Positions 1-54,002 of a stretch of 64,000 nucleotides of DNA are shown piece by piece (within the stretch, counting starts at the first letter, position 1; each line of letters opens with the position of its first letter). A program made the translations under genes and the position numbers. Origin of the DNA: an uncultured Alphaproteobacteria bacterium (GTDB lineage Bacteria > Pseudomonadota > Alphaproteobacteria > RF32 > CAG-239). The notes beneath the pieces were generated by a model, which worked only from the letters and a program-made list of their open reading frames with translations, ran no database searches and was not told where the DNA came from. Location: the NCBI GenBank assembly GCA_934276635.1, contig CAKQTH010000002.1, forward strand, positions 11,822 through 75,821, given 5' to 3'.

Positions 1-453
1 GCCACACCTGCAGCCGATGACTGGTCCTGGGATCAGCTTGATACAGATACTGCCGCAGAAAAACCGGCGACAGCTTCCAAAGAAGTTGAAACCGCTACCC
101 AGAATTCGGATAATGATGACGATTTTGCAGAAAGAGACAACAGCGAGCCTGAACCGACAAGTCTGGAAGAAACAGAAGATAACAGCTGGGGATACGGCGA
201 AAGTGAAGAAGAGCCGGCTCAAAATGATCAATCCGGCGAAGATGATCAGGACTGGGAATGGGAGTATGAAGAAACCCCGACTGAGGGCGCTTCCGAACAA
301 GCCGAACAGACTGACGAAAATTCCGGCGGCCAGGACTGGGAGTGGGAATATGAAGAGGTTCCGGAAAGTCAATCTGCAGAACAATCCGACGGAAACTCCG
401 ATGATCAGGATTGGGAGTGGGAATATGAAGAAGACAACGGCGAGAACAAATAA
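1..453 (+). CDS. C-terminal part of an acidic Trp-repeat protein (5' end lies outside the window)
   Basis: Frame 1 is open from base 1 to a TAA at 451-453. It encodes three copies of the motif DQDWEWEYEE. The copies differ at synonymous third-codon positions (gac/gat, gaa/gag), which indicates purifying selection in this frame. The ORF-track call 17..463 is in frame 2 and gives a basic low-complexity product, so it is probably the wrong frame. Confidence 0.6.
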   Translation, partial: ATPAADDWSWDQLDTDTAAEKPATASKEVETATQNSDNDDDFAERDNSEPEPTSLEETEDNSWGYGESEEEPAQNDQSGEDDQDWEWEYEETPTEGASEQAEQTDENSGGQDWEWEYEEVPESQSAEQSDGNSDDQDWEWEYEEDNGENK

Positions 454-477
454 TCTTTCATAAAAAAGGATACGCAT

Positions 478-1038
478 ATGGAAAATCAAAATAATCAGCA
501 GAATTTCAACGATACGCAGCTAAATGCCGCCGATGAAAATTCCAAACTTGCTCAGACACCGGCTCCAGCGCAGCAAAATACCGCTGCGGCAACTACCGAT
601 GATTTGTGGTATCTTGACAACTACATTATGCTTAAAGATTATTATGACCGCACGGTTTCGCGAATTGCGGCAAGATGCATCAGAATGGGCAATATTGCGA
701 TTGAGGAATATCCTTTTTACAGCTATATCCTTGATGTCTTAGACGAAATCAGCAACACCGGCGATTACATCTTAAAAACTCCGGCGCTTTATCCTTATGT
801 TGAAAAAAGAATCAAAGGCGGAATGAACTCTTTTCGCAACAATCTGCTGCAATATAAACAGGAGCTTGAAAACAACTCTTCTCCCGAGATGATAAAAGAA
901 GACCCGACGGAAGTAAATCGCGCACGACAGATTTTGGGTACGGTTGACAAGTCTGTCGACCCGACCGTCGGCGCCGGCATGAACGCCGATGAGCTGATTG
1001 AAAAGCTTATGGCAGAACAACTGAAGAAAAACCAATAG
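478..1038 (+). CDS. hypothetical cytoplasmic protein, 186 aa
   Basis: ATG preceded by an AAAAAGGA ribosome-binding site. Uniform coding-like composition. I recognise no family. Confidence 0.5.
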   Translation: MENQNNQQNFNDTQLNAADENSKLAQTPAPAQQNTAAATTDDLWYLDNYIMLKDYYDRTVSRIAARCIRMGNIAIEEYPFYSYILDVLDEISNTGDYILKTPALYPYVEKRIKGGMNSFRNNLLQYKQELENNSSPEMIKEDPTEVNRARQILGTVDKSVDPTVGAGMNADELIEKLMAEQLKKNQ

Positions 1039-1050
1039 AGGCATATAGCG

Positions 1051-2319
1051 ATGAAACTTAACAACAAAAAAATATTTCTTTGCATAACCTTCTTTGCCGC
1101 AACAATCGCGCTCAGCGGCTGCAAAATGATCTCAAGACAAAAGCCGCAGGAAACGACTGTCCCGAACGATTATTTTGCTGAAGCGCAAGAGCCGCAAGCC
1201 CCGATTTTGCGTACCTTAAACGGCGCCAATGAGCTAGATTTGGAAACTCCTCTGCGCTGCAATGTAAACTGGAAAACTCAGGAGATGGTTCTCACCCTGC
1301 CCTACAACAACTCGTTTTTTAAATTTGAACGCAACGGCTTGAACAACAAGCTACCCCGTTTTGAGGTTGTAAACTTTTCTTTCGATGAAATGCCGGCCGA
1401 ACAAGCTTTGTTAAAACTGACAAAAGAAGCAGGAATTACCCTGACGGCAAAAGATGCGCCGTATACCAAAATTTCCGGAACCGGAATCAGCGGCGAATTT
1501 TCGGCCGTTGTTGATATGATTGCGGAAAAAGCCGAATTTTATTACTCTTACGATTCGTCAAAAAAGGTTATGACACTCTCCCGCAAAACAAACTTTACGC
1601 TGTATGCCCCGCATTCCCGCACAATTTTGCTCAGTCTGCTTGATGTAATCAGAGGTTCCGGCATTACCGACATCACTACCGACTGGTCTGATTATTCGCT
1701 GACTTTTGATGCCGATTTCGAGTTGCAGCAAAAGATGGAAAATCTGGTACAAACTTTTGAAGATAATCCGACGATGATTGCTTATGATGTCAATGTATTC
1801 CGCATCTATCCGAACAACGACTGCAAAGAAATTGAGTGGAAAAAGATGCTGAAAGAATTTGACTTCGGCACAATCACAACCGCAAAAACCAGCGTTATCG
1901 GCCGAGTTTTGACTACAACAGACGAGCTGAATATTGAAACTCTGCGCGCGTTTTTGGGCGGCCAGGCCAGCGTTGTTCAAATTTCCGAAGGAAAATTTGT
2001 GGTTCCGAGCGAATGGTTTGCCCGCTTTGATGTCGGCAAATGCACCGACAAAGACATAAAAGAAGCCGATTTGTCAATCCTCGGCAGAGCTACTTTGCAA
2101 AAAGACAATCGAATCTTTTCCGAGATTACGCTTGAATCGTCTCAGGGACAGATTTCTCAATTTAATGTCAGAAGCCGTTTGGGCGACAACTTTGTGATTA
2201 TCGGTATTCCGAACGCAATTTTCGGCGAAAACGCTCCGAAATCGGAAACCGTGATATTTATGGTACCAAGAATTATTCGTACTTTGAAGACTTCCGAACC
2301 TATTAAAAATAAATTGTAA
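1051..2319 (+). CDS. lipoprotein with secretin-like N-domain and C-terminal secretin-like domain
   Basis: Signal peptide plus lipobox (MKLNNKKIFLCITFFAATIALSGC). The segment VNFSFDEMPAEQALLKLTKEAGITLTA resembles a secretin N0/STN domain. The C-terminal RLGDNFVIIGIPNAIFGEN...SETVIFMVPRIIR resembles the secretin motif (vPlLGdIPllGxLF ... ELlIFItPriv). Confidence 0.45.
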   Translation: MKLNNKKIFLCITFFAATIALSGCKMISRQKPQETTVPNDYFAEAQEPQAPILRTLNGANELDLETPLRCNVNWKTQEMVLTLPYNNSFFKFERNGLNNKLPRFEVVNFSFDEMPAEQALLKLTKEAGITLTAKDAPYTKISGTGISGEFSAVVDMIAEKAEFYYSYDSSKKVMTLSRKTNFTLYAPHSRTILLSLLDVIRGSGITDITTDWSDYSLTFDADFELQQKMENLVQTFEDNPTMIAYDVNVFRIYPNNDCKEIEWKKMLKEFDFGTITTAKTSVIGRVLTTTDELNIETLRAFLGGQASVVQISEGKFVVPSEWFARFDVGKCTDKDIKEADLSILGRATLQKDNRIFSEITLESSQGQISQFNVRSRLGDNFVIIGIPNAIFGENAPKSETVIFMVPRIIRTLKTSEPIKNKL

Positions 2320-2332
2320 GGACAAAATTGTT

Positions 2333-3007
2333 ATGAGTGAAGATATTAATAAAACGGGAAATAACGGGCAGGAAAACCCTAACCGCCCGAAAATGATAAA
2401 GGTAAAAAGGCTGAAGCCGAAAAATCCGAATGCGCCGCGTCCGGCATATCCGTCTTCCGCTCAACCTCAGGCCGAAAGACAGCCGGTTCAACAGAATCTG
2501 ACTGTTTCAAACGGTATTTCCGATTTTATTCCTGACGACCCGTTTGCGAATCGCGACAGCATTACAAATTCGCCACAATATGTTGAGCCTCAGTATGATC
2601 CGGCCGATGATTATGACACCGATAACGCCGTGATGCATATGTTGCACGCTCAGCCGGTAAAAGTTATTGTTTTGGCATCAATGTTGTTCTTTGCCTTCGG
2701 ATTCGGCATTGCAAAAATGCTTTCTCCGGCCGAAACCGCGGTCAGAGAAGGATTGCAGGGCGTTGTTGTAAATCCGGAAGTCCCGCGCGGGAGAGCCCGT
2801 TGCGGTTTGGTTGACAAGACGCAAGGCTGTGTACTTTATATTATGAATCCGCAAAGGCAAGACCTTAATGCCCGCGATTTTTATGATTTGGCCTCACAGT
2901 TGACCGGGAGACAGCGGTTTGTGATTGATACCGGAAATATGAGGTATTCGAATGTGAAAATCAAACCGGGAGCAATTGCTCAGATTAATATCCCGCCGTT
3001 GCAATAA
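2333..3007 (+). CDS. bitopic membrane protein, 224 aa (Pro/Gln-rich cytoplasmic N-terminus, one TM, periplasmic C-domain)
   Basis: ORF with a ribosome-binding site. Central hydrophobic helix VKVIVLASMLFFAFGFGIA. Lies 14 nt downstream of the secretin-like gene. Confidence 0.5.
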   Translation: MSEDINKTGNNGQENPNRPKMIKVKRLKPKNPNAPRPAYPSSAQPQAERQPVQQNLTVSNGISDFIPDDPFANRDSITNSPQYVEPQYDPADDYDTDNAVMHMLHAQPVKVIVLASMLFFAFGFGIAKMLSPAETAVREGLQGVVVNPEVPRGRARCGLVDKTQGCVLYIMNPQRQDLNARDFYDLASQLTGRQRFVIDTGNMRYSNVKIKPGAIAQINIPPLQ

Positions 3008-3010
3008 CAC

Positions 3011-3042
3011 AAAAAACTCCGATTTTATATCGGAGTTTTTTA
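3011..3042. terminator. bidirectional rho-independent terminator between convergent genes
   Basis: Hairpin ACTCCGAT-tttat-ATCGGAGT flanked by an A-run and a T-run. It lies just 3' of both the 2333-3007 (+) and 3043-4809 (-) CDS. Confidence 0.6.
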
Positions 3043-4809
3043 TTATTCTTTGTTGCCGACAACCGTACTTCGGTTTTTGTCCACAATCATTTTTGCCGGC
3101 AGCCCATTTTCTATTTTTTCTCTGATTTTCGCATAATCAACTTCTGACGCGTCTTCTTTCAGCACAAGGGAGTGATTCCACTGAAAACGCGCTTCGTTTT
3201 TGCGTCCGGCATACCAATATGCATCACCCAGATGGTCGCATATAAGAGCATTCCCCGGCTTCATATTCGCAGCTTTTTCAAGCAGTTGCACTGCGTTTTT
3301 ATAATCACCTTTTTTATAATACGCCCAGCCCATACTGTCTATAATATGAGCATCATACGAGGCCTGTTCATATGCTTTTGATATAATCGAAAAGGCTTCA
3401 TCAATATTCATATCGCGGTCAATCATCGCATAGCCGAGATAATTTTCCACCATATAATTATTGTTGCTGAGGACGAGGGCTTTTCTGAGATATTTTTCTG
3501 CATTAGTCCAATCATTTTCGCGCTCGCTCACAATTCCCAAAGCATAATACACACCCCAATTTTTGGCATATATCATCGGTGATTCTTCAAGCAAAGTCTT
3601 ATAATATTTCAGCGCGTCTTTGTTGTTTCCGCTCATTCTCAAAGCTTCTCCGAGATCAAAGTACAGGTCTGTATTATTCGGATATTTTTTTATCAGATGG
3701 CGGATAAGTTTTTCGGCCTCGGCGTATTTTTCTTGCATCATACGAGCGCGAAAGATTTTGATTTGCGCCGTATAATATTCCACACTGGACGGGCTGATTG
3801 TCTCGTATATTTTAACCGCCTCATCATACATCGACGAATTTTCCAAAATTTCGCCCTGCATAATTCGGAAAAATGCATTATTTTCATCGGCAAAACCGGC
3901 CAGGCTGACAAACACATATTCTATCTCGGAGCCGAGATTCGCCGCCCGCATAAACGCCGCGCCGTTAACAATCGCATCTGCCGTTGCAAAGCGCGGATTT
4001 ACCGGACTTTTTTCTTTTCCTTCTTCTTCTGTGATAATTTTTTTCGCATACGATTTTTGCAAATTTTCAGCGATACCTTCATATTTATAGCGATTTGCCA
4101 AAGCTATTGCCTTAGCTTTTTGACCGGTACGCATATAAAAAGAAATAATAACGCGGAAATACCTGAAATTCAGCTCATAAGGTGTTTCGGCAATAATCTT
4201 TTCATAGAAGTCTTCGGCTTTTTTGTCGTCGCCGAAATATTCATTAAGCATACCGAGATTCATATTATATATGGAAGAAAGCCAGTCTTTGTCTTTTAAC
4301 TTTTCAATTTCGGCAAAAGCCTCTTTCTGCTTGCCCTCACCTGCATATGCCCAGCTCAAAAGAATCGGGCGCAAAAACGAATCGTACGGTTCGCCGTTCA
4401 TTTGCTTTATATACACATCTGCGGATGCATAATCATTTTTGACCACACTGTCAACCGCCAAAATTGTGAACAAAAGATTGTTATTTACGCCGTTGTCCAT
4501 TGCTTTGCGGGCATACTCAGCCGCCTCGGATATCTGTCCTTGAGCCGTCAAAATAACATAAACCTGTTCAAGAAGAGCCGGATTGTCTGGGTTTTTACTC
4601 AACACATTTGCATAATATGCCGAAGCTGTTGAAAAATCGCGGCGCGAAAGAGCAATTCTGCCCGCCAGATAGCTCCCGTATTGGCTGTCAAAAACGATGT
4701 GATTGCCGTAAAAATCAGCATCATCTTGATTTTCAAACACAAAATTTGAGCACGAATTGAAAAACAATACACTTGCGACAATAGCAAGTATACCACCCGT
4801 TTTTATCAT
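3043..4809 (-). CDS. large TPR-repeat protein with N-terminal signal peptide or lipoprotein signal (pilotin/PilF/TadD-like architecture but much larger)
   Basis: Multiple TPR-like repeats (AxxYYxxG, WAYAG, etc.). The ORF extends to 4953, but the likely start is an internal ATG at 4809 (MIKTGGILAIVASVLFFNSC) or 4830; upstream residues are basic low-complexity. Confidence 0.6.
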   Translation of the reverse strand: MIKTGGILAIVASVLFFNSCSNFVFENQDDADFYGNHIVFDSQYGSYLAGRIALSRRDFSTASAYYANVLSKNPDNPALLEQVYVILTAQGQISEAAEYARKAMDNGVNNNLLFTILAVDSVVKNDYASADVYIKQMNGEPYDSFLRPILLSWAYAGEGKQKEAFAEIEKLKDKDWLSSIYNMNLGMLNEYFGDDKKAEDFYEKIIAETPYELNFRYFRVIISFYMRTGQKAKAIALANRYKYEGIAENLQKSYAKKIITEEEGKEKSPVNPRFATADAIVNGAAFMRAANLGSEIEYVFVSLAGFADENNAFFRIMQGEILENSSMYDEAVKIYETISPSSVEYYTAQIKIFRARMMQEKYAEAEKLIRHLIKKYPNNTDLYFDLGEALRMSGNNKDALKYYKTLLEESPMIYAKNWGVYYALGIVSERENDWTNAEKYLRKALVLSNNNYMVENYLGYAMIDRDMNIDEAFSIISKAYEQASYDAHIIDSMGWAYYKKGDYKNAVQLLEKAANMKPGNALICDHLGDAYWYAGRKNEARFQWNHSLVLKEDASEVDYAKIREKIENGLPAKMIVDKNRSTVVGNKE

Positions 4810-4951
4810 AATTATCAGACCTTTTTCCATCTTTTTCACAATTCTTTTCTTTATTTTACACCGAAATCTTTTTTTTACAACATCTATCGTATATATGTGT
4901 AAATAATTGCTTTGTGTTGCAAATAAAGTATTTTTGTAATAATCTTTTGCC

Positions 4952-5710
4952 ATGACTGAAAATTATGACATAAAAAGCATTTTGGAATGGTATGTTTTGG
5001 CCGGAGTTGAAGAAACCTGCGGCGATTTGCCCGAACTTGCAAAAAAAGCGGAACCTGTCGCTTTGCCGACGCCGGAACCGTTGGCTCCTGCCGCTTCGGC
5101 CACACATCTGGCAAAGAAAAATGCCGCAATGCTTTGTGATAATATCAAAACGCTCGAGGAGCTCAAATCGGTTGTAGAGTCTTTTGAAGGTTGCGCTCTC
5201 AAGGCTCATGCCTCAAATACGGTTTTCGGCTGCGGCAATCCGTTGGCCAAAGTTATGTTTGTGGGCGAGGCTCCCGGCGCAGATGAAGATCGTCTGGGCG
5301 AACCTTTTGTCGGCCGTTGCGGCCAACTTTTGGACAAGATGATATCCGCCATCGGCTTAAACCGCAAAGACTGCTTCATCAGCAATATTTTGCCATGGCG
5401 CCCGCCCGGGAACAGGACCCCGACCGAAGGAGAAGTTGCAATCTGCCTTCCGTTTATCAAAAAACAAATAGAGCTTGTTTCGCCGGACTATATTGTTGCG
5501 TTGGGCGGCAGTGCTGCAAATGCTTTGCTTGATAATGCCGAGCCGATTTCCAAAATGCGCGGAAAATGGCTTGAATATACAACTGCGAACGGCAAAAAAG
5601 TTGAAATATTGGCAACATTTCACCCTGCGTATCTGCTGCGCAACAGCCTACAAAAAGCAAAATCGTGGAGCGATTTTTTAAGACTGGAGAAAAAATTATA
5701 CAATAATTAA
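4952..5710 (+). CDS. udg: uracil-DNA glycosylase, family 4 (Fe-S type)
   Basis: Motifs GEAPGADED and FHPAYLLR. The size of about 250 aa is typical. Confidence 0.8.
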
Positions 5711-6572: not shown

Positions 6573-7295
6573 ATGAAAATTCGGGCGCATATTTATCTCT
6601 TGGCTCTATCTTTTGGATTATCCTGCAATGCGTCAGCCCAGATGTTCGGTGATGATTTTGCGCCCAAAATAAACAATTCATTTCAAACAGAGCAGTTGCA
6701 AACCGAAAAGGCCGTTTCAAAAACCCAACCGGCAAATGACGGTTTCAGAAATTTGAAAGCATATTCGCGTCCCGCAACCTCAAGCACCACGAATACGGCA
6801 ATTTCTCGGGCTCAGCAACGCACACAGCCGCAGAACACGACTGCTGCGCAAAAGAGCTCTTCTGTTTCAACAACTGCGACCACAAAGGCCAAAAAGCCCA
6901 AAACTCCGCTCACGGTCAGAAAATTTCATATTACCGAGGACGGCAAAATAAATTTTGAAGAAGAAGAAAACATCTATCTTTATTATACCAACTTTAAGAT
7001 TACGCAGTTGTTGTCAGGACAGCCGCGCTGCGATATCAGCTTTGTTCTATTTACCAGCCTCAGCACCACGCTTTCAGACATAAGTCTGCGCGTTCAGTGG
7101 CCGAAGATTAACACCGGACTGCAGTTTCAAAATGTAAAACCGGGAGAGAAAAACTTTTACGACTATGCTTTTTACGGCGACGGGTGCTATTCGATGGACA
7201 AGCTTCCTAACATCGTGATTAACAGATGCCGAATCAAAGGGCGCACCCAAAAAGAATGCGCATCGTTATTCCGACTGCTCAGAAAAGGACAATAA
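6573..7295 (+). CDS. secreted hypothetical protein, 240 aa, paralogous to the preceding gene
   Basis: Signal peptide MKIRAHIYLLALSFGLSCNASA. Ser/Thr-rich linker. C-terminal domain similar to that of 5788-6555. Confidence 0.55.
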   Translation: MKIRAHIYLLALSFGLSCNASAQMFGDDFAPKINNSFQTEQLQTEKAVSKTQPANDGFRNLKAYSRPATSSTTNTAISRAQQRTQPQNTTAAQKSSSVSTTATTKAKKPKTPLTVRKFHITEDGKINFEEEENIYLYYTNFKITQLLSGQPRCDISFVLFTSLSTTLSDISLRVQWPKINTGLQFQNVKPGEKNFYDYAFYGDGCYSMDKLPNIVINRCRIKGRTQKECASLFRLLRKGQ

Positions 7296-7306
7296 TCTTT
7301 TGAATT

Positions 7307-7332
7307 AAGGAGGAAATTTTCCTCCTTTTTGT
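7307..7332 (+). terminator. rho-independent terminator
   Basis: AAGGAGG-aaatttt-CCTCCTT followed by a T-run, 12 nt after the stop at 7295. Confidence 0.65.
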
Positions 7333-7361
7333 TTGTCTGTGTTATCCGTAACACACGGCAT

Positions 7362-7396
7362 TAAACCACAAAAAAAGGCGCCATAGCGGCACCTTT
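7362..7396 (-). terminator. rho-independent terminator for rpsU
   Basis: On the minus-strand RNA, GGUGCC-gcuau-GGCGCC followed by a U7 run, immediately 3' of rpsU. Confidence 0.55.
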
Positions 7397-7416
7397 TTTA
7401 TAAATTCGAAACCAGA

Positions 7417-7623
7417 CTAGAATCCTTCTGTATCTAAGCGTTTGCGAAGTTGTTTTCTGGCGCGTCTGACAGCTTCTGCCTGACGACGAGCTTTCTTTTC
7501 GGAATTCTTTTCGTGACAACGACGAAGTTTCATCTCACGGAAAATACCTTCTCTCTGCATTTTCTTCTTCAGAATCTTCAACGACTGTGCAACATCATTT
7601 CCGATAACAGTAACTTGAACCAC
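7417..7623 (-). CDS. rpsU: 30S ribosomal protein S21
   Basis: 68 aa, very basic, with the typical S21 layout (MVQVTV...[16 protein letters not shown]...ARRQA). Confidence 0.85.
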
Positions 7624-7713
7624 TTAAATCACCTCTTTTCAAAAATTTTATCTGGTTATTAACAAAAACTGAGTGTTTGTAGCATACAAAATACATTTAT
7701 GCAACAAAAATTT

Positions 7714-7926
7714 TTATGCAATGATATTCGGCATAATTTTAGCTTCAACACTCTGAATTTCTTTCTTAATCGAGTTTTTATCAGAGTTGAGTTTGCGTGC
7801 GGTGGCAAAGTCAATCAAACGACTCGCAGCAGCCAGCATTTTCATATCATGATTAACCCTGCGTTCTGCCAACTTTAATTCACACAAATGTTGTTGCAAT
7901 TTCATCAAATCTTTATTATTAAACAT
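7714..7926 (-). CDS. small hypothetical protein, 70 aa (possibly a DUF465-like coiled coil)
   Basis: ORF between rpsU and pfk with coiled-coil-like composition. The family assignment is uncertain. Confidence 0.35.
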   Translation of the reverse strand: MFNNKDLMKLQQHLCELKLAERRVNHDMKMLAAASRLIDFATARKLNSDKNSIKKEIQSVEAKIMPNIIA

Positions 7927-9715: not shown

Positions 9716-11809
9716 TTATTGATCTAAGAAACTGCGCAACTTACGCGATCTGCTTGGGTGTTTAAGTTTGCGCAAAGCTTTCGCCTCAATCTGACGAATG
9801 CGCTCACGCGTAACATTAAACTGTTGTCCGACTTCTTCAAGCGTGTGATCGGTATTCATTCCGATACCGAAACGCATACGCAAAACGCGTTCTTCACGCG
9901 GCGTCAGCGATGACAAAATCTTAGTGCAGGTTTCTCGCAGATTTTTGTGAATAGCCGAATCCAGCGGCTGCAAAGCGCTCTCGTCCGCAATAAAATCGCC
10001 CAAAGAAGAATCGTCTTCATCTCCGACCGGAGCCTCCAAAGACACCGGCTCTTTGGCAATTTTCATCACTTTTCTGACCTTTTCAAGCGGCATAGACAAC
10101 CGTTTTGCCAATTCTTCCGGCACCGGCTCACGCCCCATTTCCGCAAGCATCTGACGCGATGTTCTGACCAATTTATTGATTGTTTCAATCATATGAACAG
10201 GGATGCGAATCGTTCTTGCCTGGTCGGCAATCGAGCGTGTAATCGCCTGACGAATCCACCATGTTGCATATGTCGAAAACTTATAACCGCGGCGATACTC
10301 AAATTTATCAACCGCCTTCATCAAACCGATATTGCCTTCCTGAATCAAATCAAGAAACTGCAATCCGCGGTTTGTGTATTTTTTCGCGATAGAAATAACC
10401 AGACGCAAGTTTGCCTCAATCATTTCTTTTTTCGCTCTTTCGGCTTCTCTTTCGCCCTTTTTAACTGTATCTACCATCTTGCGGTATTCAGAAATAGGCA
10501 GGCCGCATTCTTGCGCCATTTGAGCAATTTCTTCACGCAAAAGGACAACTTCGGCGCCGTATTTTTCAACAAAAGCCTGCCAATGCTTGTCTTTTTTGGC
10601 TGAAATCTGCTTTATCCAATCCGGTGCAAGTTCAGATTGTTGATAAGCCTCAAGAAAATCTTCACGCTTAATTTTGCAAGATGTTGCATATCTGAGGAGC
10701 TTTCCTTCAAGCCCCATCAAACGCTTATTAAGCTCATTGAGTTGTTCAACCAGCTGTTCGATTCTGATGGCATTAAGGTGAATTGAGCTCATCAACTCAA
10801 CCAATTCTTTTTTGAGGTCGCGATATTTTTTCTCGGTTGCGGACGAAACTTTTTTGCCGTGCAAAATTGCGTCCATACGCAGATTTTGAATCTTGCACAA
10901 ATTGTCATAATTTCCCGCAATCTGGTTCAAAATTTCGAGCACCGGTTCAAGCAGCGCCGTTTCCATTGCCGAAACCGAGGTAGACGAATGACCGCCGTTT
11001 TCATCATCGGGATTGTCGCCGTCTTCACCGTCAATGTGGTTTTCCGAATCATCGGATTCGACATCACTTTCAGCATCGTTCATTTCATCATCGACCGTAT
11101 CGTCCAAATCGATATCGTTTTCCAAATCGTCATCAATATCGTCCAGATTCTTTTTTTCGAGCTCTTCGGCAACTTTCGAAAGGTCGTCAACCGGTGCGGT
11201 GTCCTCATCATCATATACCATCGCCTCGGTATCATCGCCGTACATCATTTCCAAATCAATGATATCGCGCAGCTGCATTGTTCCATTTACAAGTTCATCG
11301 CGCCAATTTGCAATAGCTTTAATCGTCATCGGGCTTTGGCACAAACCATCTATCATAACGGTTTTGCCAGCCTCTATTCTTTTGGCAATTGCGATTTCGC
11401 CTTCGCGCGACAACAGCTCGACAGTGCCCATTTCTTTAAGGTACATTCTGACCGGATCGTCTGAGCGGCCTAAGTCTTTTTCGTCAAAGTTTCCGGCATC
11501 GTTATCATCATCTTCATCAACATCTTCATCAACGGCATCTGATTCTCCGTCATAAGAATCGACTTCGGATTCTGAAATAATGTTTATCCCCATATCTGAT
11601 ATGGAAGACATAATATCTTCTATTTTTTCGGAAGATTCTTTTTCGAGCGGAAGAGCCTTGTTTAGTTCTTCTACCGTGATATATCCGCGTTCCTTGCCCT
11701 TTTCGACCAGCCGCTTTACGGTTGCGCCGAGTGAATCGACAAGAACGCTTCCTACTGAATCTTCTTCATAGAAATCCTGATTTTCTTTATCTGACATAAT
11801 TTTTCCCAA
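9716..11809 (-). CDS. rpoD: RNA polymerase sigma-70 factor RpoD
   Basis: 697 aa with an acidic region-1.1 insertion. Conserved regions 2-4 are present ([53 protein letters not shown]). Confidence 0.95.
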
Positions 11810-11952
11810 AAAACCGGTTTAGTTCTCCGCAAGCTTGTGCGGAAAAAAATTTGCTAGCGCGCTTTTTATACTTATTTTTCTCGTATTTGTCAATAGTTGC
11901 AAGCAATATAATTGCAATTTTGGCGAATTTAAATGCCTGCTTTTTGATATTA

Positions 11953-18584: not shown

Positions 18585-21500
18585 ATGAAAAATTATGTTT
18601 TCAAGAGAATTCTGTTAACAACAAGCGTGGCTTGCGGCGCGCTTTTTGTCTCGGGGAATGTAAATGCGGCAACCGTGTCTACATGGGAAGAATTTAAGGC
18701 GGCGATTGCGGCCGGAGAAAGCGAGATTGTGCTTGCGGACAACCTGACGGCGACCGATATAATCACAATTACAAGTCCGCTCAGCATCAAGAGCGCGGAC
18801 GGACAGGTTTATAAAATTTCTGCGGCTGACGGGCTGAAATTTTCCGACTCCTTTATCAAATATACCGGCACATCGTCTTCTCCGCTGCTTAATTTGAGCA
18901 ATGTGCAGATTTCAAACATTTACCGTTTTAACAACACCAACGCCGGAACATACGCTGGCGGCGTAATCAACAACTCGGGCAAAATCGGCACGATTGACGG
19001 TGTGTTTTCTGACAACAAAATGGAATATAATCTAGACAGCGGTGGGCATACCAGAGTGTACGGCGGTATAATCTATAACAGTTCGTCCGGCTCCATAGAT
19101 AAAATCGGCGGCACATTTTCCAGCAACGACTTTGTCAGCCGCGTTCCGTGGAGCAGCCTCAACTCCTGGGGCGGCATAATCAGCAACCAGGGCACTATCA
19201 ACGAAATTGATGCAAACTTTATCGGAAACACTATGTCGACAGAAGATTATAGAGATAACTATACTTATGGCGGAATAATACAATCGAGCGGAAAAATCGG
19301 CACAATCAGAGGATTGTTCAAAGACAATATATTAAAATATTACAACTACACCAGCTACTGGAATGAGCAAAGGGGTAGTTTGATGTATATACAAAACGGG
19401 GTAGACAATATCTATGCCGACTTTATAAACAACTCCCTATATAATGAAGCCAATGACACTCTGACACGTGTCCACGCATCTTTAAACTTAGGTTTTATAA
19501 CCTTGCAATATAACAATATAAACGATTTTGTATCGTCTTTTGCTGAAAATAAGATGAATGTAACACTTACCGGAAACGGTAACGGATTTGTCAGAATAAA
19601 TGATATATACCAGACAACCGCAAAAAATATTGTGTTTGATATGCATAACAACAAAGTTGATGCAACAGCTGAAGGTTATATATATTATGAAAGCTTCAAC
19701 ATGGAAGGGGATTCAACTGATGTTACATTTAATAATTCCAAATTCTATGAAAATGAAACAACATTAGAATCCACCACAAAAAACATTTATGCCTCCGGCT
19801 TAATGACTGTATCCAGCAGCGGTGCGAAAGCAACATTTAACAATGTGCTGTTTAAGGACAATATTACTACCGCAGTCGGGAATTCGACCATCAGCGGCGG
19901 CGGTATCAAAAACAACGGTACATTAAACATTAACACCGCGCTTTTTGAAAACAACCTGATTAATTCCACAAATGCGGCAAACGGCGGAGCAATTTCCAAC
20001 GCAAAAACCGCCTCGATTATTGCTGATTTTGTCGGCAACAAAGCTTTCGCCGGAACGGATACTTCCACCGACACCAACGCCGTGGCCAGAGGTGGCGCGG
20101 TTTACAACTCCGCAGCCGGAACAATCGAAAAGCTCAGCGGCGTATTCTCTGACAACAAAGCGTATGCGATCGGCAAAACAAAATCTTCCGCTCTCGGCGG
20201 CGCGGTCTATAACAAAGGAAACCTCACTCTTTCTAATATCGTGATGGCCGACAACAACGCGGTTGCCGAAACCGGAACAGCCGACGAAACAAACAAGCCG
20301 GAAGCGCTCGGCGGTGCGGTTTATAACCTCGGAGATTTGCATATCAACGGTTCTGACGGCTTTGAAAACATTATCTCCGGCAACAAGGCGACTACCAAAA
20401 TCGGCGAGACCGAAAACACCGTGCAAAACGGAATATACACCGCCGCGGCCGACAAGAATGTATTTGTTAATATGACGACCGATTCAAAACTGTTCGTCTA
20501 TGACACCATCGACGGCGTTGAGGCCGGATACAACCTAAAATTTGACGGCGATGAAACCGGCCAGGCGTTTATTTATAACAATATTATCAACGCCAACATC
20601 TTTTTGGACAATATGTATCTGAACATTGCTCAAGAAGAATATCTCGACAATGCGAAAACTCTGACGCTTTCTTCCGGTCATTTGGATTTGATGAACGGAA
20701 AAGTCGGAACAATCCGCCCGGCAATGACTTTGACCGGCAATGTTCTGCTCTCCGTTGATGTCGATTTGTCCAACAAAATTATGGACCGCTTTGCCGATGG
20801 CGCAACCGCTACGGCCGGAAAACTCACAATCTCGCAGATAAATCTTCTTTCTGACGCTCTGCAAGATGTTGTGTATGTTCCGTTTGCCGAAGACAGCTGG
20901 CGCGACAAAGTTGATACCACCGTTACCGACGCCGTATATTCGAGCATCTATAAATATACGGTTTCGTACGAGGCTGACGGCGACGAAAACGGCGAAAATC
21001 GCGGCTCGTTCAAATTTGTCCGCACTTCGGTCATAAACCCGAATATTGAGGCGTCTTCAATCGCGGGAATCATCAACGGGGCAATGACGCAAGGCTTGAT
21101 TTATCAAAAAGCCCTGCAAGGCACCGATAACGCCGCACTCATCGGCCTCGGTATGTCTTCCGGCGATGAAAAGAGCGAATACGCTATCGGACAAATGTGG
21201 ATAAGACCGTTCTTGAGCAAAGAAAATGTTGATCTCAAATATTCCAACACCGTCCGTGCACAGGCTCGTGGTATGGTCTTTGGTATCGACAGCAACGACA
21301 TTCATCTTGACAACGGCGGAGAGCTCACAATCAGCCTCTATGGCGCAGTCGTCGACTCCGACCAAAAGTTTGAGCAAAACAAAGTTAAACAAACCGGAGG
21401 CAACCTCGGCGGATCTATCGTGGCAACATACGGCGACTTCTTTGCCGCAGTCACCGCCAATATCGGTATGAGCGATAATGAAGTCAACACCGTCACCGGC

Positions 21501-21974
21501 AAAGACAACTTTAATATCTATCTCGGCGGTGCGGCGTTCAAAACCGGCTACAATATCAGCCTTAACGAAAGCAAAGACCTGGTTATTCAGCCGAACTTCC
21601 TGACTTCGTACACCGCGCTGAAAACCGAAAATTATCACACTTCGGCCGGCGTTCATGTAAAGTCTGATATGCTGCATGTGGTAGAAATCGCTCCGGGCTT
21701 TAAGCTCATCAAAGAATACGACCACGGATTTAAGGCATATGCTACCATGACGGCGGTTTGGAATGTTATAATCGACGGCGAGGTTCGCGCAAACAATGTG
21801 GTTCTGCCTGACTTGAGCGTCAAACCATACATTGAATACGGATTCGGTTTTGAAAAAGACTGGAGCCAAGAAGAATGGAACCCGGTTGACCTCACAACAT
21901 TCGCGCAAATCGTCAGACGCGACGGCGGACGCGAAGGTTGGGCAGGAACCGCGGGTATCAAATGGAGCTTCTGA
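18585..21974 (+). CDS. autotransporter adhesin with Pmp-type (GGA[IV]xN / FxxN) passenger repeats and a C-terminal beta-barrel
   Basis: Signal peptide MKNYVFKRILLTTSVACGALFVSGNVNA. Repeated GGAIYN/GGAVYN...F.GN motifs. The C-terminus ends in GIKWSF (aromatic terminal residue). 1129 aa. Confidence 0.8.
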   Translation: MKNYVFKRILLTTSVACGALFVSGNVNAATVSTWEEFKAAIAAGESEIVLADNLTATDIITITSPLSIKSADGQVYKISAADGLKFSDSFIKYTGTSSSPLLNLSNVQISNIYRFNNTNAGTYAGGVINNSGKIGTIDGVFSDNKMEYNLDSGGHTRVYGGIIYNSSSGSIDKIGGTFSSNDFVSRVPWSSLNSWGGIISNQGTINEIDANFIGNTMSTEDYRDNYTYGGIIQSSGKIGTIRGLFKDNILKYYNYTSYWNEQRGSLMYIQNGVDNIYADFINNSLYNEANDTLTRVHASLNLGFITLQYNNINDFVSSFAENKMNVTLTGNGNGFVRINDIYQTTAKNIVFDMHNNKVDATAEGYIYYESFNMEGDSTDVTFNNSKFYENETTLESTTKNIYASGLMTVSSSGAKATFNNVLFKDNITTAVGNSTISGGGIKNNGTLNINTALFENNLINSTNAANGGAISNAKTASIIADFVGNKAFAGTDTSTDTNAVARGGAVYNSAAGTIEKLSGVFSDNKAYAIGKTKSSALGGAVYNKGNLTLSNIVMADNNAVAETGTADETNKPEALGGAVYNLGDLHINGSDGFENIISGNKATTKIGETENTVQNGIYTAAADKNVFVNMTTDSKLFVYDTIDGVEAGYNLKFDGDETGQAFIYNNIINANIFLDNMYLNIAQEEYLDNAKTLTLSSGHLDLMNGKVGTIRPAMTLTGNVLLSVDVDLSNKIMDRFADGATATAGKLTISQINLLSDALQDVVYVPFAEDSWRDKVDTTVTDAVYSSIYKYTVSYEADGDENGENRGSFKFVRTSVINPNIEASSIAGIINGAMTQGLIYQKALQGTDNAALIGLGMSSGDEKSEYAIGQMWIRPFLSKENVDLKYSNTVRAQARGMVFGIDSNDIHLDNGGELTISLYGAVVDSDQKFEQNKVKQTGGNLGGSIVATYGDFFAAVTANIGMSDNEVNTVTGKDNFNIYLGGAAFKTGYNISLNESKDLVIQPNFLTSYTALKTENYHTSAGVHVKSDMLHVVEIAPGFKLIKEYDHGFKAYATMTAVWNVIIDGEVRANNVVLPDLSVKPYIEYGFGFEKDWSQEEWNPVDLTTFAQIVRRDGGREGWAGTAGIKWSF

Positions 21975-25635: not shown

Positions 25636-25725
25636 AAAAATCAACTGCGGCATAATTAATATTAGACAAATATTTTTTTTGTGCTAATATTATATCAGTA
25701 TTGTTTATCCGCAAAGGAAAAAATT

Positions 25726-27015
25726 ATGAATCAGGAAAATCTCGAAGTTGTGAAAAAGTTGATGCGATTTGCCAAAGGAAAGCTCGTAAGCGCCTACAAT
25801 TCCGAGCTTTTTCAAAACTTTAAGGCCGAATACACCGGCGCAAAACTGGTTGAAAAGCTGCGTGCCGGAAAGGTCGGCTTTGTCAATGGCGTAAATCAGG
25901 CAAAAGTGGTTTTCCGTCCTCGCTATAAATTGGCTAAAGCGCGTGCTATTGCGGCCGGTCAGCGATTTTTGAGCTTTACGAAAGAAAATCTGCAAGCAGC
26001 GAAAAATTCTGATTTATACAAAGATTTTCAAAATTCAAAATTGGTGCAAAATTGCCGAAAATACGGGCGAAAAGCGGTGCTTGCGGCGTCGATTTCGGGC
26101 GTGTTGCTCGGCGGCGGATATATCTTTAAGAAAAATTCCAACAACAAGAGAACTGCCGAATACAGGCAGGAGATTGTCACTCATACCCCGACCGTGGACG
26201 AGGCCATCAAACATAACGAAAATCTGCTGTTTGCCACCATCGTTCATTCCGAAAATTTCAGCAATGAGCCATACCGCGATTCCGCCGGAGTTCCGACCAT
26301 CGGCTATGGCACGACCGTTTATCCGAACGGAAAAAGAGTTACGATGGGCGACAATCCGATAAGCCGCACTCTTTCGCCGGAAATGGTGCAAAAAAACAAC
26401 GGCAGCTACAAAGACGCGATGTATGACAAGGCGCAGGGATATGTTATATCTCACCTTGAAAAAGAGGTGTATCCGGCGCTCAGAGAGATTAAAGACTTCA
26501 ACAAGCTCACGCAAAATCAACAGGTTGCGCTCGGGCTGTTTGTTTATAATATCGGAAAGTCGGGCTTTGAAAACTCGTCTGTTTTGCAAGAGCTTAATGC
26601 CGGAAATACCTTAGCCGCGTTTGATAACATACTCAAATATAACAAAGTGAAAGGCAAACGGGGAGGATTGGTATTTTCGAGAGGCCTGCAAAAGCGCCGC
26701 GCGTACGAATATATGATTGCGCAGGGCAATGTTTCTTTGGCCGATGTGATAAAAATGCCGATCGGAAGCTTGTATGTCGACTCAGCTTATGAGCTTATGT
26801 ATGGTGGGAAAACAGCGAAAGACTTTGCCGGCGAAAACATTGTAAAGCCGGATTCTTCCAAAGCGGCAGGATATGTTACCGCGCTGATGAGCGCGGCCGG
26901 CAATAAGGTTGAGCATTGCGTCACCAGCGCCTGCCGGCAGGATATCAAAGCAAAAACGGCGTCCGATGCCCAAAAAATTGAAGTTGCGATGCTTGACCGC
27001 GGCAACAGGCGTTGA
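25726..27015 (+). CDS. inner-membrane-anchored glycoside hydrolase family 24 (phage-type lysozyme) protein
   Basis: About 125 aa cytoplasmic N-domain, one TM (AVLAASISGVLLGGGYIF), then a GH24 signature: HSENFSNEPYRDSAGVPTIGYGTT ... LTQNQQVALGLFVYNIGKSGF ... KRGGLVFSRGLQKRRAYEYM. Confidence 0.65.
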   Translation: MNQENLEVVKKLMRFAKGKLVSAYNSELFQNFKAEYTGAKLVEKLRAGKVGFVNGVNQAKVVFRPRYKLAKARAIAAGQRFLSFTKENLQAAKNSDLYKDFQNSKLVQNCRKYGRKAVLAASISGVLLGGGYIFKKNSNNKRTAEYRQEIVTHTPTVDEAIKHNENLLFATIVHSENFSNEPYRDSAGVPTIGYGTTVYPNGKRVTMGDNPISRTLSPEMVQKNNGSYKDAMYDKAQGYVISHLEKEVYPALREIKDFNKLTQNQQVALGLFVYNIGKSGFENSSVLQELNAGNTLAAFDNILKYNKVKGKRGGLVFSRGLQKRRAYEYMIAQGNVSLADVIKMPIGSLYVDSAYELMYGGKTAKDFAGENIVKPDSSKAAGYVTALMSAAGNKVEHCVTSACRQDIKAKTASDAQKIEVAMLDRGNRR

Positions 27016-27456: not shown

Positions 27457-30400
27457 CTACCATTCCTGAGTATATTTCAACTTAGGATTGTTCAAACGCT
27501 TTATATAATTAGGGTTACTTCTTTCTACTCCTTGTTCTACTGTTCTAAGGCTTGAATATTGATTATATTCTGTATCAACCATATTTTCATTGAAATAACT
27601 ATTACTGTTGTTTGTCAAACCATTTCTATCGAAATAACAATATACAGTCGCATAACCTTCTATACTCCATTTATCAACCGGGAACAAATTCCAATATATT
27701 TTGTTATCTCCTTGTCCAAGCTGCGGTGCTTCTGATCCACCCATTCCCGGTGTTTTGCTTGAATCAAACAAGTGGCTCCACAACACTGACGGATAGATAA
27801 ATCCCATATAGGTATTCCAACCTACAAATTGTCCGCCTGTTGAATATTCATTTCCTTTGTTATTATTTTCTCCTACATTTCCTCCCAAATTAAGCTTAAT
27901 TGCCGACTTCAACCATGTATTTTGTTGGAATATTCTCGGAATTGTTATAGAACCTCCTCCTGCCGGAATCTCTTTTATATCACCTTTTATCAATCCTTTA
28001 CTGGTCATATCATAAATCTTTTTATCTGGAGATTTGGCACTAGTGTTTCCATACATTGGTGTCGATTCGTTCAAATATAATCTATTACCTGCATCTGCAC
28101 TGCTATCTTCTACCAGAGTACCGATTTGAGCCATACGCCAGCCGGCAGGAGTCAAAGTAATAACTTTTGCATACCCCGGAGGACACTGCGGCGCCGGGAC
28201 AACTCCTAAAAATGCTGATGCAAATATAGCATTTACTTCCTTCACTGAATTGTTCATACTAGTTATGTCTTTTTCTTTAGGTGTCGTTCCCTCACCATAG
28301 CTGTTATCCGTAACATAAATACCTTTATTAATAAAGTCAGGCAAAATATCGCTCAAACGAGCTCCACCGCGGGAGGTCAGCTTGATATCGTGCATAACCG
28401 AAGTATATGCCGGATCTACCATATAGTGGTCATAACGCACACCATGACCTATTGTTTTGTCTTTATATACTTCATTTGGATTTCTCTCATAAGATACTCC
28501 GTTTTTTACATCCTGGACATTATCTACAACAAACCTGTCCGCTTTAACATACCCCGTCCCCGCATCAGCAGCATTTTTACCGGTTGAATCAGCAGCATTT
28601 TTACCGGTTGAAGAGGCTATCTTGTCTAAATCATCAAATTGCTGTACATCTATTGAACCTCTGCGGATATATACACCAGCTTTGATAGTATTATTTGCTC
28701 TATCTTGTACATTAAAATTATCATCACCTTTTGAAACATCATCTGAGCCGCTTACCGCCAACACATTATTTTGCAAGACAACTTTTCCGCCATATGCATT
28801 ATCACCAGACTTATGATGAACAGTTTGAATATGTATATATTGATCACCCTGCAATTGAATATTATTCGATGCATTAAATTGCAAGAAACTACCTTTATCA
28901 TATTTAGGAGTGACATCTATGCCATTATTTGCTTCTACACTATCTCTAGACAATGTTATTGTTCCATCTACTCCCTTTGTTGAATCTGACGGGGAAACAT
29001 TCATTACAATATCTCCACCCTTTACCGTTGTATTAACATTACCAGCAGTAACTTTGTTTTCTATGTTAGCATCAGAAACAGTCATAGCTATACCGCCGAC
29101 ATTCTTAACCGCTTTGCCATCGTCTTTATAAATTCGACCTATATCCAATTGAGAGAGTGGTTTTTTTACTGTTGATCCTGACGATGATTGTCCTAACGTC
29201 CTCATTTGAATAGTACCTTGTAGCAAGTCGCCTACACTTTCTTGGTCATTGCCATAACCTTTTATTTGTCTGGCTTCTTCAAGCTTTCCGCTGGACGCCA
29301 CATTTATATATGCATACTGCGCCGGTAATTCTCCCGCTTTACTTTCACCTTTTCTTTTATACCCGATTTTAACACCGTTTTTATCTACATCTAAATTCCA
29401 GGTTTCTTGGCTATTGTCTAGATCGTTTCTGCCTGCGCGCAATGATTTTGTATCAAAATTATCAGATTTCAAATATCCTGTTTCCAGCTGTGTCGCAATT
29501 GTTCTACCTGATAAAATATTTGCATTTTTTGCATTATTTGCGGCAACTATATATGATGTATAAGCAGCATTGCCATCACTATCTTTTTTTCCTATACGAG
29601 CATATTTGTCTTTAAATCCGGACCCATCGTATGTGGCTTTATTATCTTGTGTACCGACATAATTTTTTGGATTCATTGCCACAAGTTGATTTTTAATAGT
29701 CGTTCCATCTTCTTTGATACTAACCTTAGCATCGTCACTATTGCCAAAGAAACGAACAGCTCTTGCATCACCAGATTCTTCTGCGCCTATATTTGCAGAA
29801 ATTAAATTATTAGCATATGTCAAAGTATTACTATTTACGGCAAACTTATCCTTACTATCGCCGGTTCTGCTGAATGTCATGCCACTGTTATCAACAACCA
29901 GTCCGGCTCCGGCAACCGCTGTAGTATTTCCTTCTCCTGTAGTAGAGGTATACGGATTGTATTTAAATTCTGTTTCATCGACACTCAGTTTTTTCCGAGC
30001 GGCTTCCAATGATCCGCCTAACCAAGTATTTTTAACAGCGCCTTTACTGCTGACATACAAAGCATAACCTTCTGCATCGGCAGTTATATCATCATCTTGA
30101 TTATCTTTTTTATTTCCATCTCTTCCTTCTTGATGGCCAATCAAAAGTTGGCGAACGCCTTCGATGCTTTTTGCGCCATCATCACCCCACATATACAAGT
30201 TTGTCTGCATGGTGTTGTTTTCAACATCATCTTCAACGCGATATAAAAACTTGCTGGTATCAATCTGTGCCGACGCCCCGACCGCATTCTGCGATGCCAC
30301 AACAACCGAGTTATCAGAAATACCATTTAGCTCTATATCTGCAGGATCTGTCTGCCATGTACCCTGAACGCCGAGCACTTCACCGTTGTCAACAATTGCT

Positions 30401-30875: not shown

Positions 30876-31745
30876 TTATCTTACAACACTCATAACAATT
30901 AAACAGTTACTGGAATCTTTGTGGCAGTTGCTATCAGACGCGAACAATCCATTTTGGGAAATCGCCTTCGGAATCGGCACAAGTTTGTCTTGAAACCCGC
31001 TGATAAAATACTCAAAATTGTTAACCATCAACGAGTTACCTGCTGAATCTTTATATAATTTTTCATCAATCACTTGATCTTTATATTTGCCGGCAGGAAC
31101 CACATACCCCATCTTTACGCCCTGAGTCGAAGTTTTTTTGATGGCTTTTATCAAATCTTCATTCGGAGCCTCTAAGGTAGAGCCTTCAGCTCCTCTGGCT
31201 CTCCAACGCACAGGAATCGGCATTGTGGTCACAACATACAGCCTTGCATAGTTTTTGTTCGGAATAGGGTTCCCGTTTTCATCAACTTTGATTGAACCGT
31301 CTTCATTTTTCTGAGTTGCTCCTTCAGAACCCTGACAAAGCTTTATATCCGCGGTCAATTCAAGCCGATTAAAAACCGTAGGGTCATGCATATCGCGGCT
31401 TTTGATGCAATATAGCTTTGAAACTTCGCCGACCTCAGGCCTAAATCCTTCCAAAACGGTTTCAGATAAAATTCCACCTTCTGGTTTACCTGTATCTGGA
31501 TTCTCTTTAGGATTAAGTTCCGCCTTTGTTATCGTCCCCAAATACATTGTCCCGTCTTGCCCATTTTTCGCCAGCTTGTATTGCTTCTTAGTATATTTTG
31601 TGACTGCCTCATGCTGAATCAAAAGCTTTGAAATGACAGCCTGCGCCTGCGGCGTTACATACAAATCGCGCGAATCGGATCGCACGCTCAAATTATATGA
31701 AAACAGCGCCACAACAAATGTTGCCAATATTACCCAGATATACAT
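30876..31745 (-). CDS. membrane-anchored 289-aa protein co-operonic with the giant pilin-like gene (possible minor pilin or assembly partner without a canonical leader)
   Basis: The ATG has a GGGGGAAGAG ribosome-binding site and in-frame stops upstream. N-terminal hydrophobic helix MYIWVILATFVVALFSY followed by a helical segment. The stop lies 9 nt before the GGAGA ribosome-binding site and ATG of the downstream gene. Confidence 0.5.
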   Translation of the reverse strand: MYIWVILATFVVALFSYNLSVRSDSRDLYVTPQAQAVISKLLIQHEAVTKYTKKQYKLAKNGQDGTMYLGTITKAELNPKENPDTGKPEGGILSETVLEGFRPEVGEVSKLYCIKSRDMHDPTVFNRLELTADIKLCQGSEGATQKNEDGSIKVDENGNPIPNKNYARLYVVTTMPIPVRWRARGAEGSTLEAPNEDLIKAIKKTSTQGVKMGYVVPAGKYKDQVIDEKLYKDSAGNSLMVNNFEYFISGFQDKLVPIPKAISQNGLFASDSNCHKDSSNCLIVMSVVR

Positions 31746-53995: not shown

Positions 53996-54002
53996 ATTAT
54001 CC

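Follow-up and report, generated by a model that had tools for sequence, protein, structure and literature searches.

Secretins form the outer-membrane pores of type II and type III secretion systems, type IV pili, Tad pili and filamentous phages, and the shortest canonical members, f1 pIV and RcpA/CpaC, are Pfam-positive non-lipoproteins that have both gates and belong to phage or Tad machinery. Type IV secretion systems (T4SSs) are thought to use a VirB7/VirB9/VirB10 core, borrowing at most the secretin N0 domain, as in DotD and Xanthomonas VirB7. Herein, a 64,000-nt stretch of the genome of an uncultured gut alphaproteobacterium (contig CAKQTH010000002.1; the whole stretch is called the window) was found to encode, close to its first position, a 422-aa lipoprotein that is, on remote-homology methods alone, a true, strongly diverged member of the secretin superfamily. 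Its gene belongs to a module that lies beside putative type IV secretion (VirB6-like) genes and not beside pilus genes. Judging by titles, abstracts and one text look-up, no such protein or module, and no pairing of a secretin-superfamily member with VirB6-like genes, is described in the papers that the literature searches brought up, and a search on RF32 and type IV secretion likewise returned nothing. We read this conserved module as an envelope accessory to a VirB6-expanded T4SS of the Rickettsiales type (rvh-like), a function that we infer with a probability of about 0.5.

Among the described systems, two T4SS lipoproteins of the outer membrane have an N0 domain of the secretin type, DotD of the Legionella Dot/Icm system (PMC2951367) and Xanthomonas VirB7 (PMC3093366). 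The 422-aa protein resembles them as a predicted N0-fold outer-membrane lipoprotein encoded in a putative T4SS locus, whereas it adds a ring domain and a secretin core to the N0 domain, which is the only such part in the descriptions of DotD and VirB7. Tandem VirB6 paralogues are a hallmark of the Rickettsiales rvh system (PMC2653234), with which the present loci share tandem VirB6-like arrays bearing long hydrophilic extensions, an alphaproteobacterial host, and T4SS genes split into chromosomal clusters (a B6 array and a B8-B11 operon). In contrast, PMC2653234 lists no equivalent of the regulator, P1, P2, secretin-like and bitopic proteins described below, and there the word secretin occurs only within a reference title.

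Secretin homology of the 422-aa lipoprotein

The lipoprotein is encoded on the plus strand together with two upstream genes, for proteins termed P1 and P2, and one downstream gene, the gaps between the four being 27, 12 and 13 nt. The features of this region are the following.

1-450, plus strand: 3' end (149 codons and stop) of the gene for P1, a 569-aa, cytoplasmic, highly acidic protein, from the frame-1 translation
478-1038, plus strand: P2, a 186-aa cytoplasmic protein with neither a transmembrane (TM) segment nor a signal peptide
1051-2319, plus strand: divergent, shortened secretin-superfamily lipoprotein of 422 aa, predicted to reside in the outer membrane
1051-1122, plus strand: signal peptide and lipobox LSGC of the lipoprotein
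1207-1320, plus strand: its conserved N-terminal segment with the invariant C70
about 1363-1581, plus strand: its N0-type domain
about 1588-1764, plus strand: its ring-type (beta-alpha-beta-beta-alpha) domain
about 1771-2292, plus strand: its secretin-like beta core, ending SETVIFMVPRIIR
2333-3007, plus strand: bitopic inner-membrane protein of 224 aa with a single hydrophobic segment, aa 109-130
2657-2722, plus strand: TM segment of the bitopic protein
2735-3004, plus strand: its conserved periplasmic domain of about 90 aa with two invariant Cys
3011-3041: terminator-like, bidirectional hairpin closing the module operon; its stem of 13 bp has a run of A on one side and of T on the other

An earlier reading of the DNA, made from the sequence only, had described an acidic partial gene, the 186-, 422- and 224-aa proteins and a convergent TPR gene, and all of these were found where it had placed them; its topologies, cytoplasmic for the 186-aa protein and bitopic for the 224-aa protein, also hold.

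Homology of the 422-aa protein to secretins emerges at the level of profiles and fold. The Pfam models Secretin, Secretin_N and STN gave no match to it even at E <= 0.1, the NCBIfam scan was equally silent, TIGR02520 and every pilus-secretin model included, and a sequence search of the PDB with the single protein and with the family profile returned noise only (Wza, E 0.02; flavodoxin, E 0.26). A phmmer search against 1.84 billion representative proteins recovered 162 relatives, the distant ones among which (E 1e-12 to 1e-4, 450-860 aa) all carry PF00263, some with STN or TcpQ in addition. When an alignment of the lipoprotein family (A1) was compared by hhalign with 31 Pfam-positive secretins taken from these distant matches (A2), the two aligned with a probability of 99.9 and an E of 8.5e-35 across 388 columns and the whole length, from the lipobox to SETVIFMVPRII, which is paired with SELVIFLKPRLI. 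Parts of the protein aligned in the same register when compared separately, with E 1.7e-21 for residues 95-240, 3e-11 for 241-422 and 1e-5 for 296-422. Because residues 241-422 are significant alone, the core is homologous in its own right, beyond the N domains that had recruited A2.

The predicted structure points the same way. An AlphaFold2 (AF2) monomer model reached a mean predicted local distance difference test score (pLDDT) of 73.7, with 85-91 in the N domains and 77-88 in most strands of the beta-rich core, and the top 49 matches of this model in a Foldseek search of the PDB were all secretins, led by Vibrio cholerae PilQ (E 3e-10) and BfpB (5e-10) and followed by InvG, GspD, XcpQ and RcpA. 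The domain order is that of an N0-type domain, one ring-type domain and a secretin beta core, which carries at residues 398-410 the C-terminal SETVIFMVPRIIR, a secretin-type E-x-V-I-F-x-x-P-R-I-I motif. In the lipobox L-S-G-C24, C24 is invariant across 78 homologues; plain signal peptides replace the lipobox in some distant members of the family. The sequence-only reading had called the protein a secretin-like lipoprotein, to be checked by a secretin-domain search and a structure prediction. Profile-profile comparison and fold uphold this, and the domain search found nothing; taken literally the missing domain match speaks against homology, yet it is overturned because the profile-profile and fold evidence is significant. 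All source names read for members of the family are 'hypothetical protein', and nearly all of the records are '[Alphaproteobacteria bacterium]' metagenome-assembled genomes (MAGs), with one Acetobacter sp.

The nearest canonical secretins possess lipoboxes, and their best-scoring NCBIfam models are those of MshL, GspD and PilN. In the gene cluster of one of them (locus L097), a 531-aa T2SSE ATPase is encoded just downstream, a layout that we take to be the R64 pilN-pilQ arrangement, and in another (L098) TrbI and CagX+TcpQ genes are mixed with T2SSE, T2SSF and secretin+TcpQ genes. Since these nearest relatives carry lipoboxes and sit in PilN-like clusters, the family most likely descends, to judge from the sequences, from PilN/MshL-like lipoprotein secretins of thin pili, and the earlier suggestion of a kinship with the lipoprotein secretins of type IVb and R64-type systems agrees with the PilN-type clusters of these relatives. 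PilN-type thin-pilus secretins themselves travel with conjugative T4SSs. The L098 genes, at 119-2672 and 10001-11851, specify a VirB9 (CagX)-TcpQ fusion and a secretin that ends in a TcpQ domain, besides two more proteins that contain this domain. With PilN, BfpB and TcpC (and MshL), the 422-aa protein has in common a lipobox, so that neither a pilotin nor an S domain would be needed, as well as the N0-ring-core order and the C-terminal motif. It differs from them in a core that is shorter at three sites and escapes Pfam and TIGR02520, in an N-terminal segment of its own with the invariant C70 and C331, and in the position of its gene beside VirB6-like or VirB9-11 genes, whereas the canonical relatives lie beside pilus genes.

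Relative to the nearest canonical secretins, the core is about 60 residues short in the A1-A2 alignment, owing to deletions of 19 residues after GKCTD333, 20 after ESSQ365 and about 15 within IPNA..IFG. From the Pfam consensus, we take these sites to be the two gate hairpins (GATE1 and GATE2) and the stretch before the amphipathic helical loop. On account of this shortening, the protein may form no pore. It could then be a poreless secretin relic, serving as an outer-membrane-anchored periplasmic ring or scaffold in the manner of DotD, or as the degenerating leftover of a lost pilus with another envelope role, which would suit both the three missing stretches and the failure of every curated secretin model. 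Such a relic is judged improbable, however, in view of the strong purifying selection on the family (78 sequences of 56-82% identity have 91 invariant columns, a good part of which fall in the core, with conserved stretches EGKFVVP..W..RFD.GKC and ...GIPN...SET..F.VPR..R), of a core that aligns in register with secretins (E 3e-11) and of its beta-rich AF2 model at pLDDT 77-88. Two cysteines, C70 (nt 1258-1260) and C331 (nt 2041-2043), are invariant family-wide, members of 25-40% identity included, and are not found in canonical secretins; C70 belongs to the family-specific N-terminal segment and C331 sits exactly at the first core deletion. A C70-C331 disulfide may tether the N-terminal segment to the site of the presumed lost gate hairpin.

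The conserved module and its probable type IV secretion neighbours

Relatives of the locus were collected by scanning one genome per GTDB species, which yielded 265, with 80 loci kept, and a metagenome scan (A7) added 72 loci; the counts below are taken over about 160 loci, each count using only loci with enough flanking sequence. Nearly all of the 80 kept loci are labelled as uncultured Alphaproteobacteria of human, ruminant or chicken gut ('Azospirillum sp.' MAGs, Ca. Scatocola), while a few records are titled Lachnospiraceae or Bacteroidaceae. Across these loci the module runs from a regulator with two helix-turn-helix (HTH) domains through P1, P2 and the secretin-like lipoprotein to the bitopic protein. 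The P2 family lies directly upstream of the secretin-like gene in 133/134 loci and the bitopic gene directly downstream in 128/136, a constancy that makes the bitopic protein, which the earlier reading had placed at the flank of the lipoprotein, a constant partner; the regulator is present in 83/84 loci and the P1 N-terminal domain in 81/85. The core order is also kept in six further lineages (L090, L092, L093, L094, L099 and L100) whose secretin-like proteins are 24-40% identical to that of the window, four of which have VirB6-like genes upstream; in L099 the upstream sequence ends early. Uncultured gut Alphaproteobacteria thus carry this locus on the chromosome as a conserved stretch passed on by vertical descent, and positions 1-3007 of the window are its distal end.

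The remainder of the locus was reached through an exact look-up of the 422-aa protein, which gave a contig (L001) that shows 0 mismatches to the window in 12,319 shared nt and adds 8,950 nt upstream; about 75 kb of this genome were covered. There, as in L089, the gene order is that of a 281-aa cytoplasmic protein, a 63-aa two-TM protein, five polytopic proteins, the regulator and the 569-aa P1. The five tandem polytopic proteins, of about 700, 440, 240, 527 and 732 aa, bear long hydrophilic tails and are paralogues of one another. PF04610 (TrbL/VirB6) matches the 440-aa paralogue with an E of 6.8e-5 and 23.2 bits, below the cut-off of 25.9, and is on record for 6/9 homologues of this paralogue, one of which bears the NCBI name 'type IV secretion system protein'; weak TrbL matches were also obtained in L089 and L100. 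VirB6-like genes occur within 10 kb upstream of the module in 73/78 loci. In L087 (8109-11654), from one related species, the last VirB6-like paralogue is a 1181-aa protein with an N-terminal Peptidase_M23 (murein DD-endopeptidase-like) domain, which makes it a fusion of a peptidoglycan hydrolase with a VirB6-like membrane protein.

Further T4SS genes adjoin the module in 27/91 loci, which form one subclade of the gut group, as a convergent operon directly downstream. In L095, this operon encodes CagX/VirB9 with SPOR, a 1140-aa protein, TrbI/VirB10 of 1441 aa and, with 322 aa, a VirB11-like ATPase. The ATPase matches TIGR02788 over its full length and as its best family with 143-157 bits, below the equivalog cut-off of 250, has Brucella VirB11 as its best PDB match, and keeps 64-69% identity in comparisons of lineages in which that of the secretin-like proteins is only about 30%. 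In the distant L093, too, a VirB11-like gene comes after the module, but the downstream sequence there is too short to be counted. VirB3 and VirB4 genes were not seen beside the VirB6 array.

These neighbours bear on the earlier proposal that the region is a fragment of a pilus apparatus. In its present form, this explanation holds that a type IV (IVb/R64-like) pilus or related fibre crosses the outer membrane through the lipoprotein as its channel, for instance in the case of a 1135-aa pilin-like protein encoded at 27457-30864, and that its adjacency to T4SS genes mirrors IncI-type elements, in which a thin pilus aids conjugation. The 1135-aa protein does have a class III-like leader (MKNFDMKKINQAG/SLMIEAIAML..., with Glu at +5; QAG/SLMIE...), type IVb pili typically have lipoprotein secretins, BfpB ranks second among the Foldseek matches, and the nearest canonical relatives reside in clusters with PilQ/BfpD-type ATPases and T2SSF, joined in L098 by TrbI and CagX. 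The pilus is nevertheless doubtful. No PilB/GspE-type ATPase, platform protein or prepilin peptidase was found in the 64-kb window, nor were a pilus ATPase, platform protein or prepilin peptidase found in the gene tables of representative related loci (up to 10 kb), where the neighbours are VirB6/TrbL-like and, in the subclade, VirB9-11. The pilin-like gene has no assembly genes nearby and no homologue in any related locus within their 10-kb reach. Furthermore, the presumed gate-loop segments are missing, every NCBIfam pilus-secretin model failed, and the bitopic partner shows no similarity to proteins beside canonical PilN-like secretins.

The regulator (L001 6637-7581) is a 314-aa protein with two HTH_3 domains of the Xre/CI type and a C-terminal domain of about 130 aa. 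It is 42-55% identical in lineages whose secretin-like proteins are 27-40% identical, and among the structural proteins only the bitopic periplasmic domain is more conserved; its alignment to the phrog_4 repressors reaches into the C-terminal domain. Its matches to phage-repressor PHROGs would be expected if the module were part of a filamentous prophage, the lipoprotein being a secretin of the pIV type and the regulator a CI-like repressor. This origin is effectively refuted and was rejected, the PHROG scan having shown no phage signal for the structural proteins: Zot/pI ATPase, coat and replication genes are not present, the position relative to the VirB6-like genes is fixed on the chromosome at more than 70 loci in many species, and the composition shows no anomaly.

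Partner proteins and the proposed role of the module

Scans of the module-region proteins with Pfam and NCBIfam matched only TPR and HTH domains, and P1, P2 and the bitopic protein have no match in Pfam, NCBIfam, PHROG or the PDB. The complete P1 gene (L001 7694-9403) encodes 569 aa with a pI of 4.05, and its product is built from a conserved N-terminal domain of about 60 aa (AQRFLNIFRQ...LPGG), a middle part that varies and is coiled or of low complexity, and a tail rich in acidic and aromatic residues; the N-terminal domain is common to proteins of 291-1397 aa in distant lineages. The last 150 residues of P1 contain 37% D+E and 9 Trp. Three DQDWEWEYEE repeats had been reported for this end, and three copies there are, at nt 244-273, 328-357 and 403-432, the middle one reading GQDWEWEYEE. 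The motif is not a product of chance, because W[DE][WYF][DE] repeats are kept in 45/60 distinct P1 orthologues, typically as 3-4 copies of DWEWEYVDD/EWEYVDENGNP; Tandem Repeats Finder detected no DNA-level tandem repeat beneath the DQDWEWEYEE motifs. Orthologues in L018, L031, L057, L058, L068, L076 and other loci have 3-6 regularly spaced copies of (D/E)WEYVDENGNP(I/V) in the acidic tail, of which the DQDWEWEYEE of the window looks like a diverged form, and which recall the W-Y-x-D-x-N-G core of clostridial and streptococcal cell-wall or choline-binding repeats. The mechanical list of open reading frames (ORFs) has a K/R-rich ORF of 148 aa in frame 2 (17-463) over this end of the gene. The earlier remark that the wrong frame had been called is right, because frame 1 of nt 1-450 is open and motif-bearing, ending DDQDWEWEYEEDNGENK before its stop.

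P2, with a pI of 4.6, has a conserved helical core, WY.DNYI.L.DYYDRTISRIAARC.R.G, and is homologous to the C-terminal part of proteins of 349-694 aa in distant lineages, the long forms having an extra N-terminal domain. Profiles of P2 (A5) and of the P1 N-terminal domain (A6) gave nothing significant against the PDB, the best match of P2 being the type III secretion chaperone CesA/CesAB at a non-significant E of 0.045-0.066. In the GC-rich, distant L093 lineage, a 440-aa protein (6575-7897) unites the N-terminal domains of P1 and of the long P2 forms, and the regulator is missing from the module; this fusion suggests that P1 and P2 act together.

The bitopic protein combines a Pro-rich cytoplasmic N-terminus, one TM segment and a periplasmic domain of about 90 aa. 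In lineages where the secretin-like identity is 27-40%, this domain is 29-73% identical to that of the window, so it is more conserved than the secretin-like protein, and C51 and C60 are invariant in its alignment (A4). GspC and PilP are bitopic secretin connectors that bind N0 (PMC4471445), and the bitopic protein is like them in its small periplasmic domain and in having its gene beside the secretin gene. In contrast, it has no sequence or profile similarity to them, so the likeness is one of functional analogy only; hhalign found no similarity between the domain and proteins encoded beside canonical PilN-like secretins either.

In the proposed accessory module of an rvh-like T4SS, the Lol pathway would carry the 422-aa lipoprotein to the outer membrane without a pilotin, and there it would oligomerise into a ring. 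The small, presumably disulfide-bonded periplasmic domain of the bitopic protein would dock on the N0 domain of the lipoprotein, as GspC and PilP do in type II secretion systems and type IV pili, thereby tying the ring to the inner membrane, the seat of the VirB6-like proteins. The assembly would form an accessory outer-membrane ring or conduit of the rvh-like T4SS, whose VirB9-11 operon lies alongside in the subclade. P1 might act as a substrate or as an adaptor in the cytoplasm, with P2 as the partner or chaperone of P1.

Several points weigh against this reading, beyond the possible lack of a pore. What P1 and P2 do is guessed at here. It is not obvious why a T4SS whose VirB9 and VirB10 already provide a core in the outer membrane should need a secretin ring, and the module has no ATPase of its own. 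The VirB6 assignments rest on sub-threshold or weak Pfam matches, and L090 has the module without any VirB6-like gene within 10 kb. The VirB9-VirB10-VirB11 operon is adjacent neither in the window nor in the other 64/91 loci; neither VirB4, VirB8-11 nor VirD4 was found in the 64-kb window, where tblastn likewise detected no VirB9, VirB10 or VirB11. For the bitopic periplasmic domain, a profile search of the PDB (A4) returned nothing significant and no PilP or GspC match, and a single-sequence AF2 model (pLDDT about 46) was unusable. Finally, the loci span about 10 kb around the gene, and the synteny counts are not phylogenetically independent.

The linkage counts can also be read in favour of a self-contained exporter, in which a VirB6-like channel, the bitopic connector and a short-secretin pore would export P1 with P2 as its chaperone. 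The module is tied far more tightly to VirB6-like genes (73/78) than to VirB9-11 (27/91), the secretin-like gene is always immediately preceded by those of P1 and P2, the P1 tails are highly variable, repetitive and acidic like many secreted or surface proteins, and the marginal CesA/CesAB profile match of P2 would fit a chaperone. An exporter of this kind is unlikely, however: no energising ATPase lies within the unit, neither a signal peptide nor another recognised export signal is present in P1, the CesA match falls short of significance, and we know of no VirB6 that works without VirB3, VirB4 and VirB8. A bolder form of the T4SS reading, held tentatively and with less confidence than the accessory module itself, is that of a hybrid machine, in which, throughout a clade of gut Alphaproteobacteria, a VirB6-expanded T4SS would have recruited a shortened but full secretin-family ring together with the bitopic connector, with P1 as cargo or adaptor. 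The ring would then be a second outer-membrane conduit or a docking ring, and the secretin core would be structural in a T4SS.

Neighbouring genes and wider meaning

Beyond the module, the window carries the features below, together with further ORFs whose Pfam annotations are housekeeping (among them rpoD, dnaG, tpiA, uvrB/C, yidC, efp and a tolQ-like gene); Pfam gave no match for several ORFs.

3043-4953, minus strand: convergent TPR gene, a 636-aa ORF, with TPR confirmed by Pfam scan
4952-5710, plus strand: family-4 uracil-DNA glycosylase (UDG) gene, divergent neighbour of the TPR gene
18585-21974, plus strand: 1129-aa protein with a signal peptide and no Pfam match
25681-27015, plus strand: 444-aa protein with a phage-lysozyme domain
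27457-30864, minus strand: pilin-like 1135-aa protein, about 25 kb away from the module, with a prepilin-like leader and no Pfam domain
30876-31745, minus strand: 289-aa protein with a hydrophobic N-terminus, directly upstream of the 1135-aa gene
46708-47697, plus strand: 329-aa ORF, no Pfam match
52745-54923, minus strand: 416-aa and 306-aa ORFs, no Pfam match
61734-63794, minus strand: 686-aa ORF, no Pfam match

The TPR protein had been called giant and put forward as a pilotin for the lipoprotein. Gene callers start it at M49 (nt 4809, 588 aa) on all contigs with the whole gene, and its signal peptide begins at the same residue, so that it is probably 588 aa long and 'giant' is an overstatement. 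It adjoins the module only in the species of the window; elsewhere a TPR-UDG pair, 27% (TPR) and 51% (UDG) identical to that of the window, was seen in L092 only, about 8 kb from the module. The two genes look like a conserved housekeeping pair, with the TPR gene a housekeeping neighbour of the module. The terminator-like hairpin, AAAAAACTCCGAT-TTTAT-ATCGGAGTTTTTT, stands between two stop codons, at 3007 for the 224-aa gene and at 3043 for the TPR gene. Being non-syntenic and separated by this terminator, the TPR protein was rejected as a pilotin; lipoprotein secretins need none (PMC4471445).

Altogether, the locus provides a full-length secretin homologue that every curated model tried (Pfam, NCBIfam) has missed and that has relatives in 265 GTDB species. 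Names can thereby be given to five 'hypothetical' gene families from a common uncultured lineage of the human and animal gut. If the link between this protein and the T4SS is functional, the repertoire of secretin-using machines would be wider than has been thought. In the same case, a natural secretin possibly devoid of gates could offer insight into the role of the gates and the amphipathic loop, and the module could provide a handle on the unexplained VirB6 expansions that this lineage has in common with Rickettsiales.

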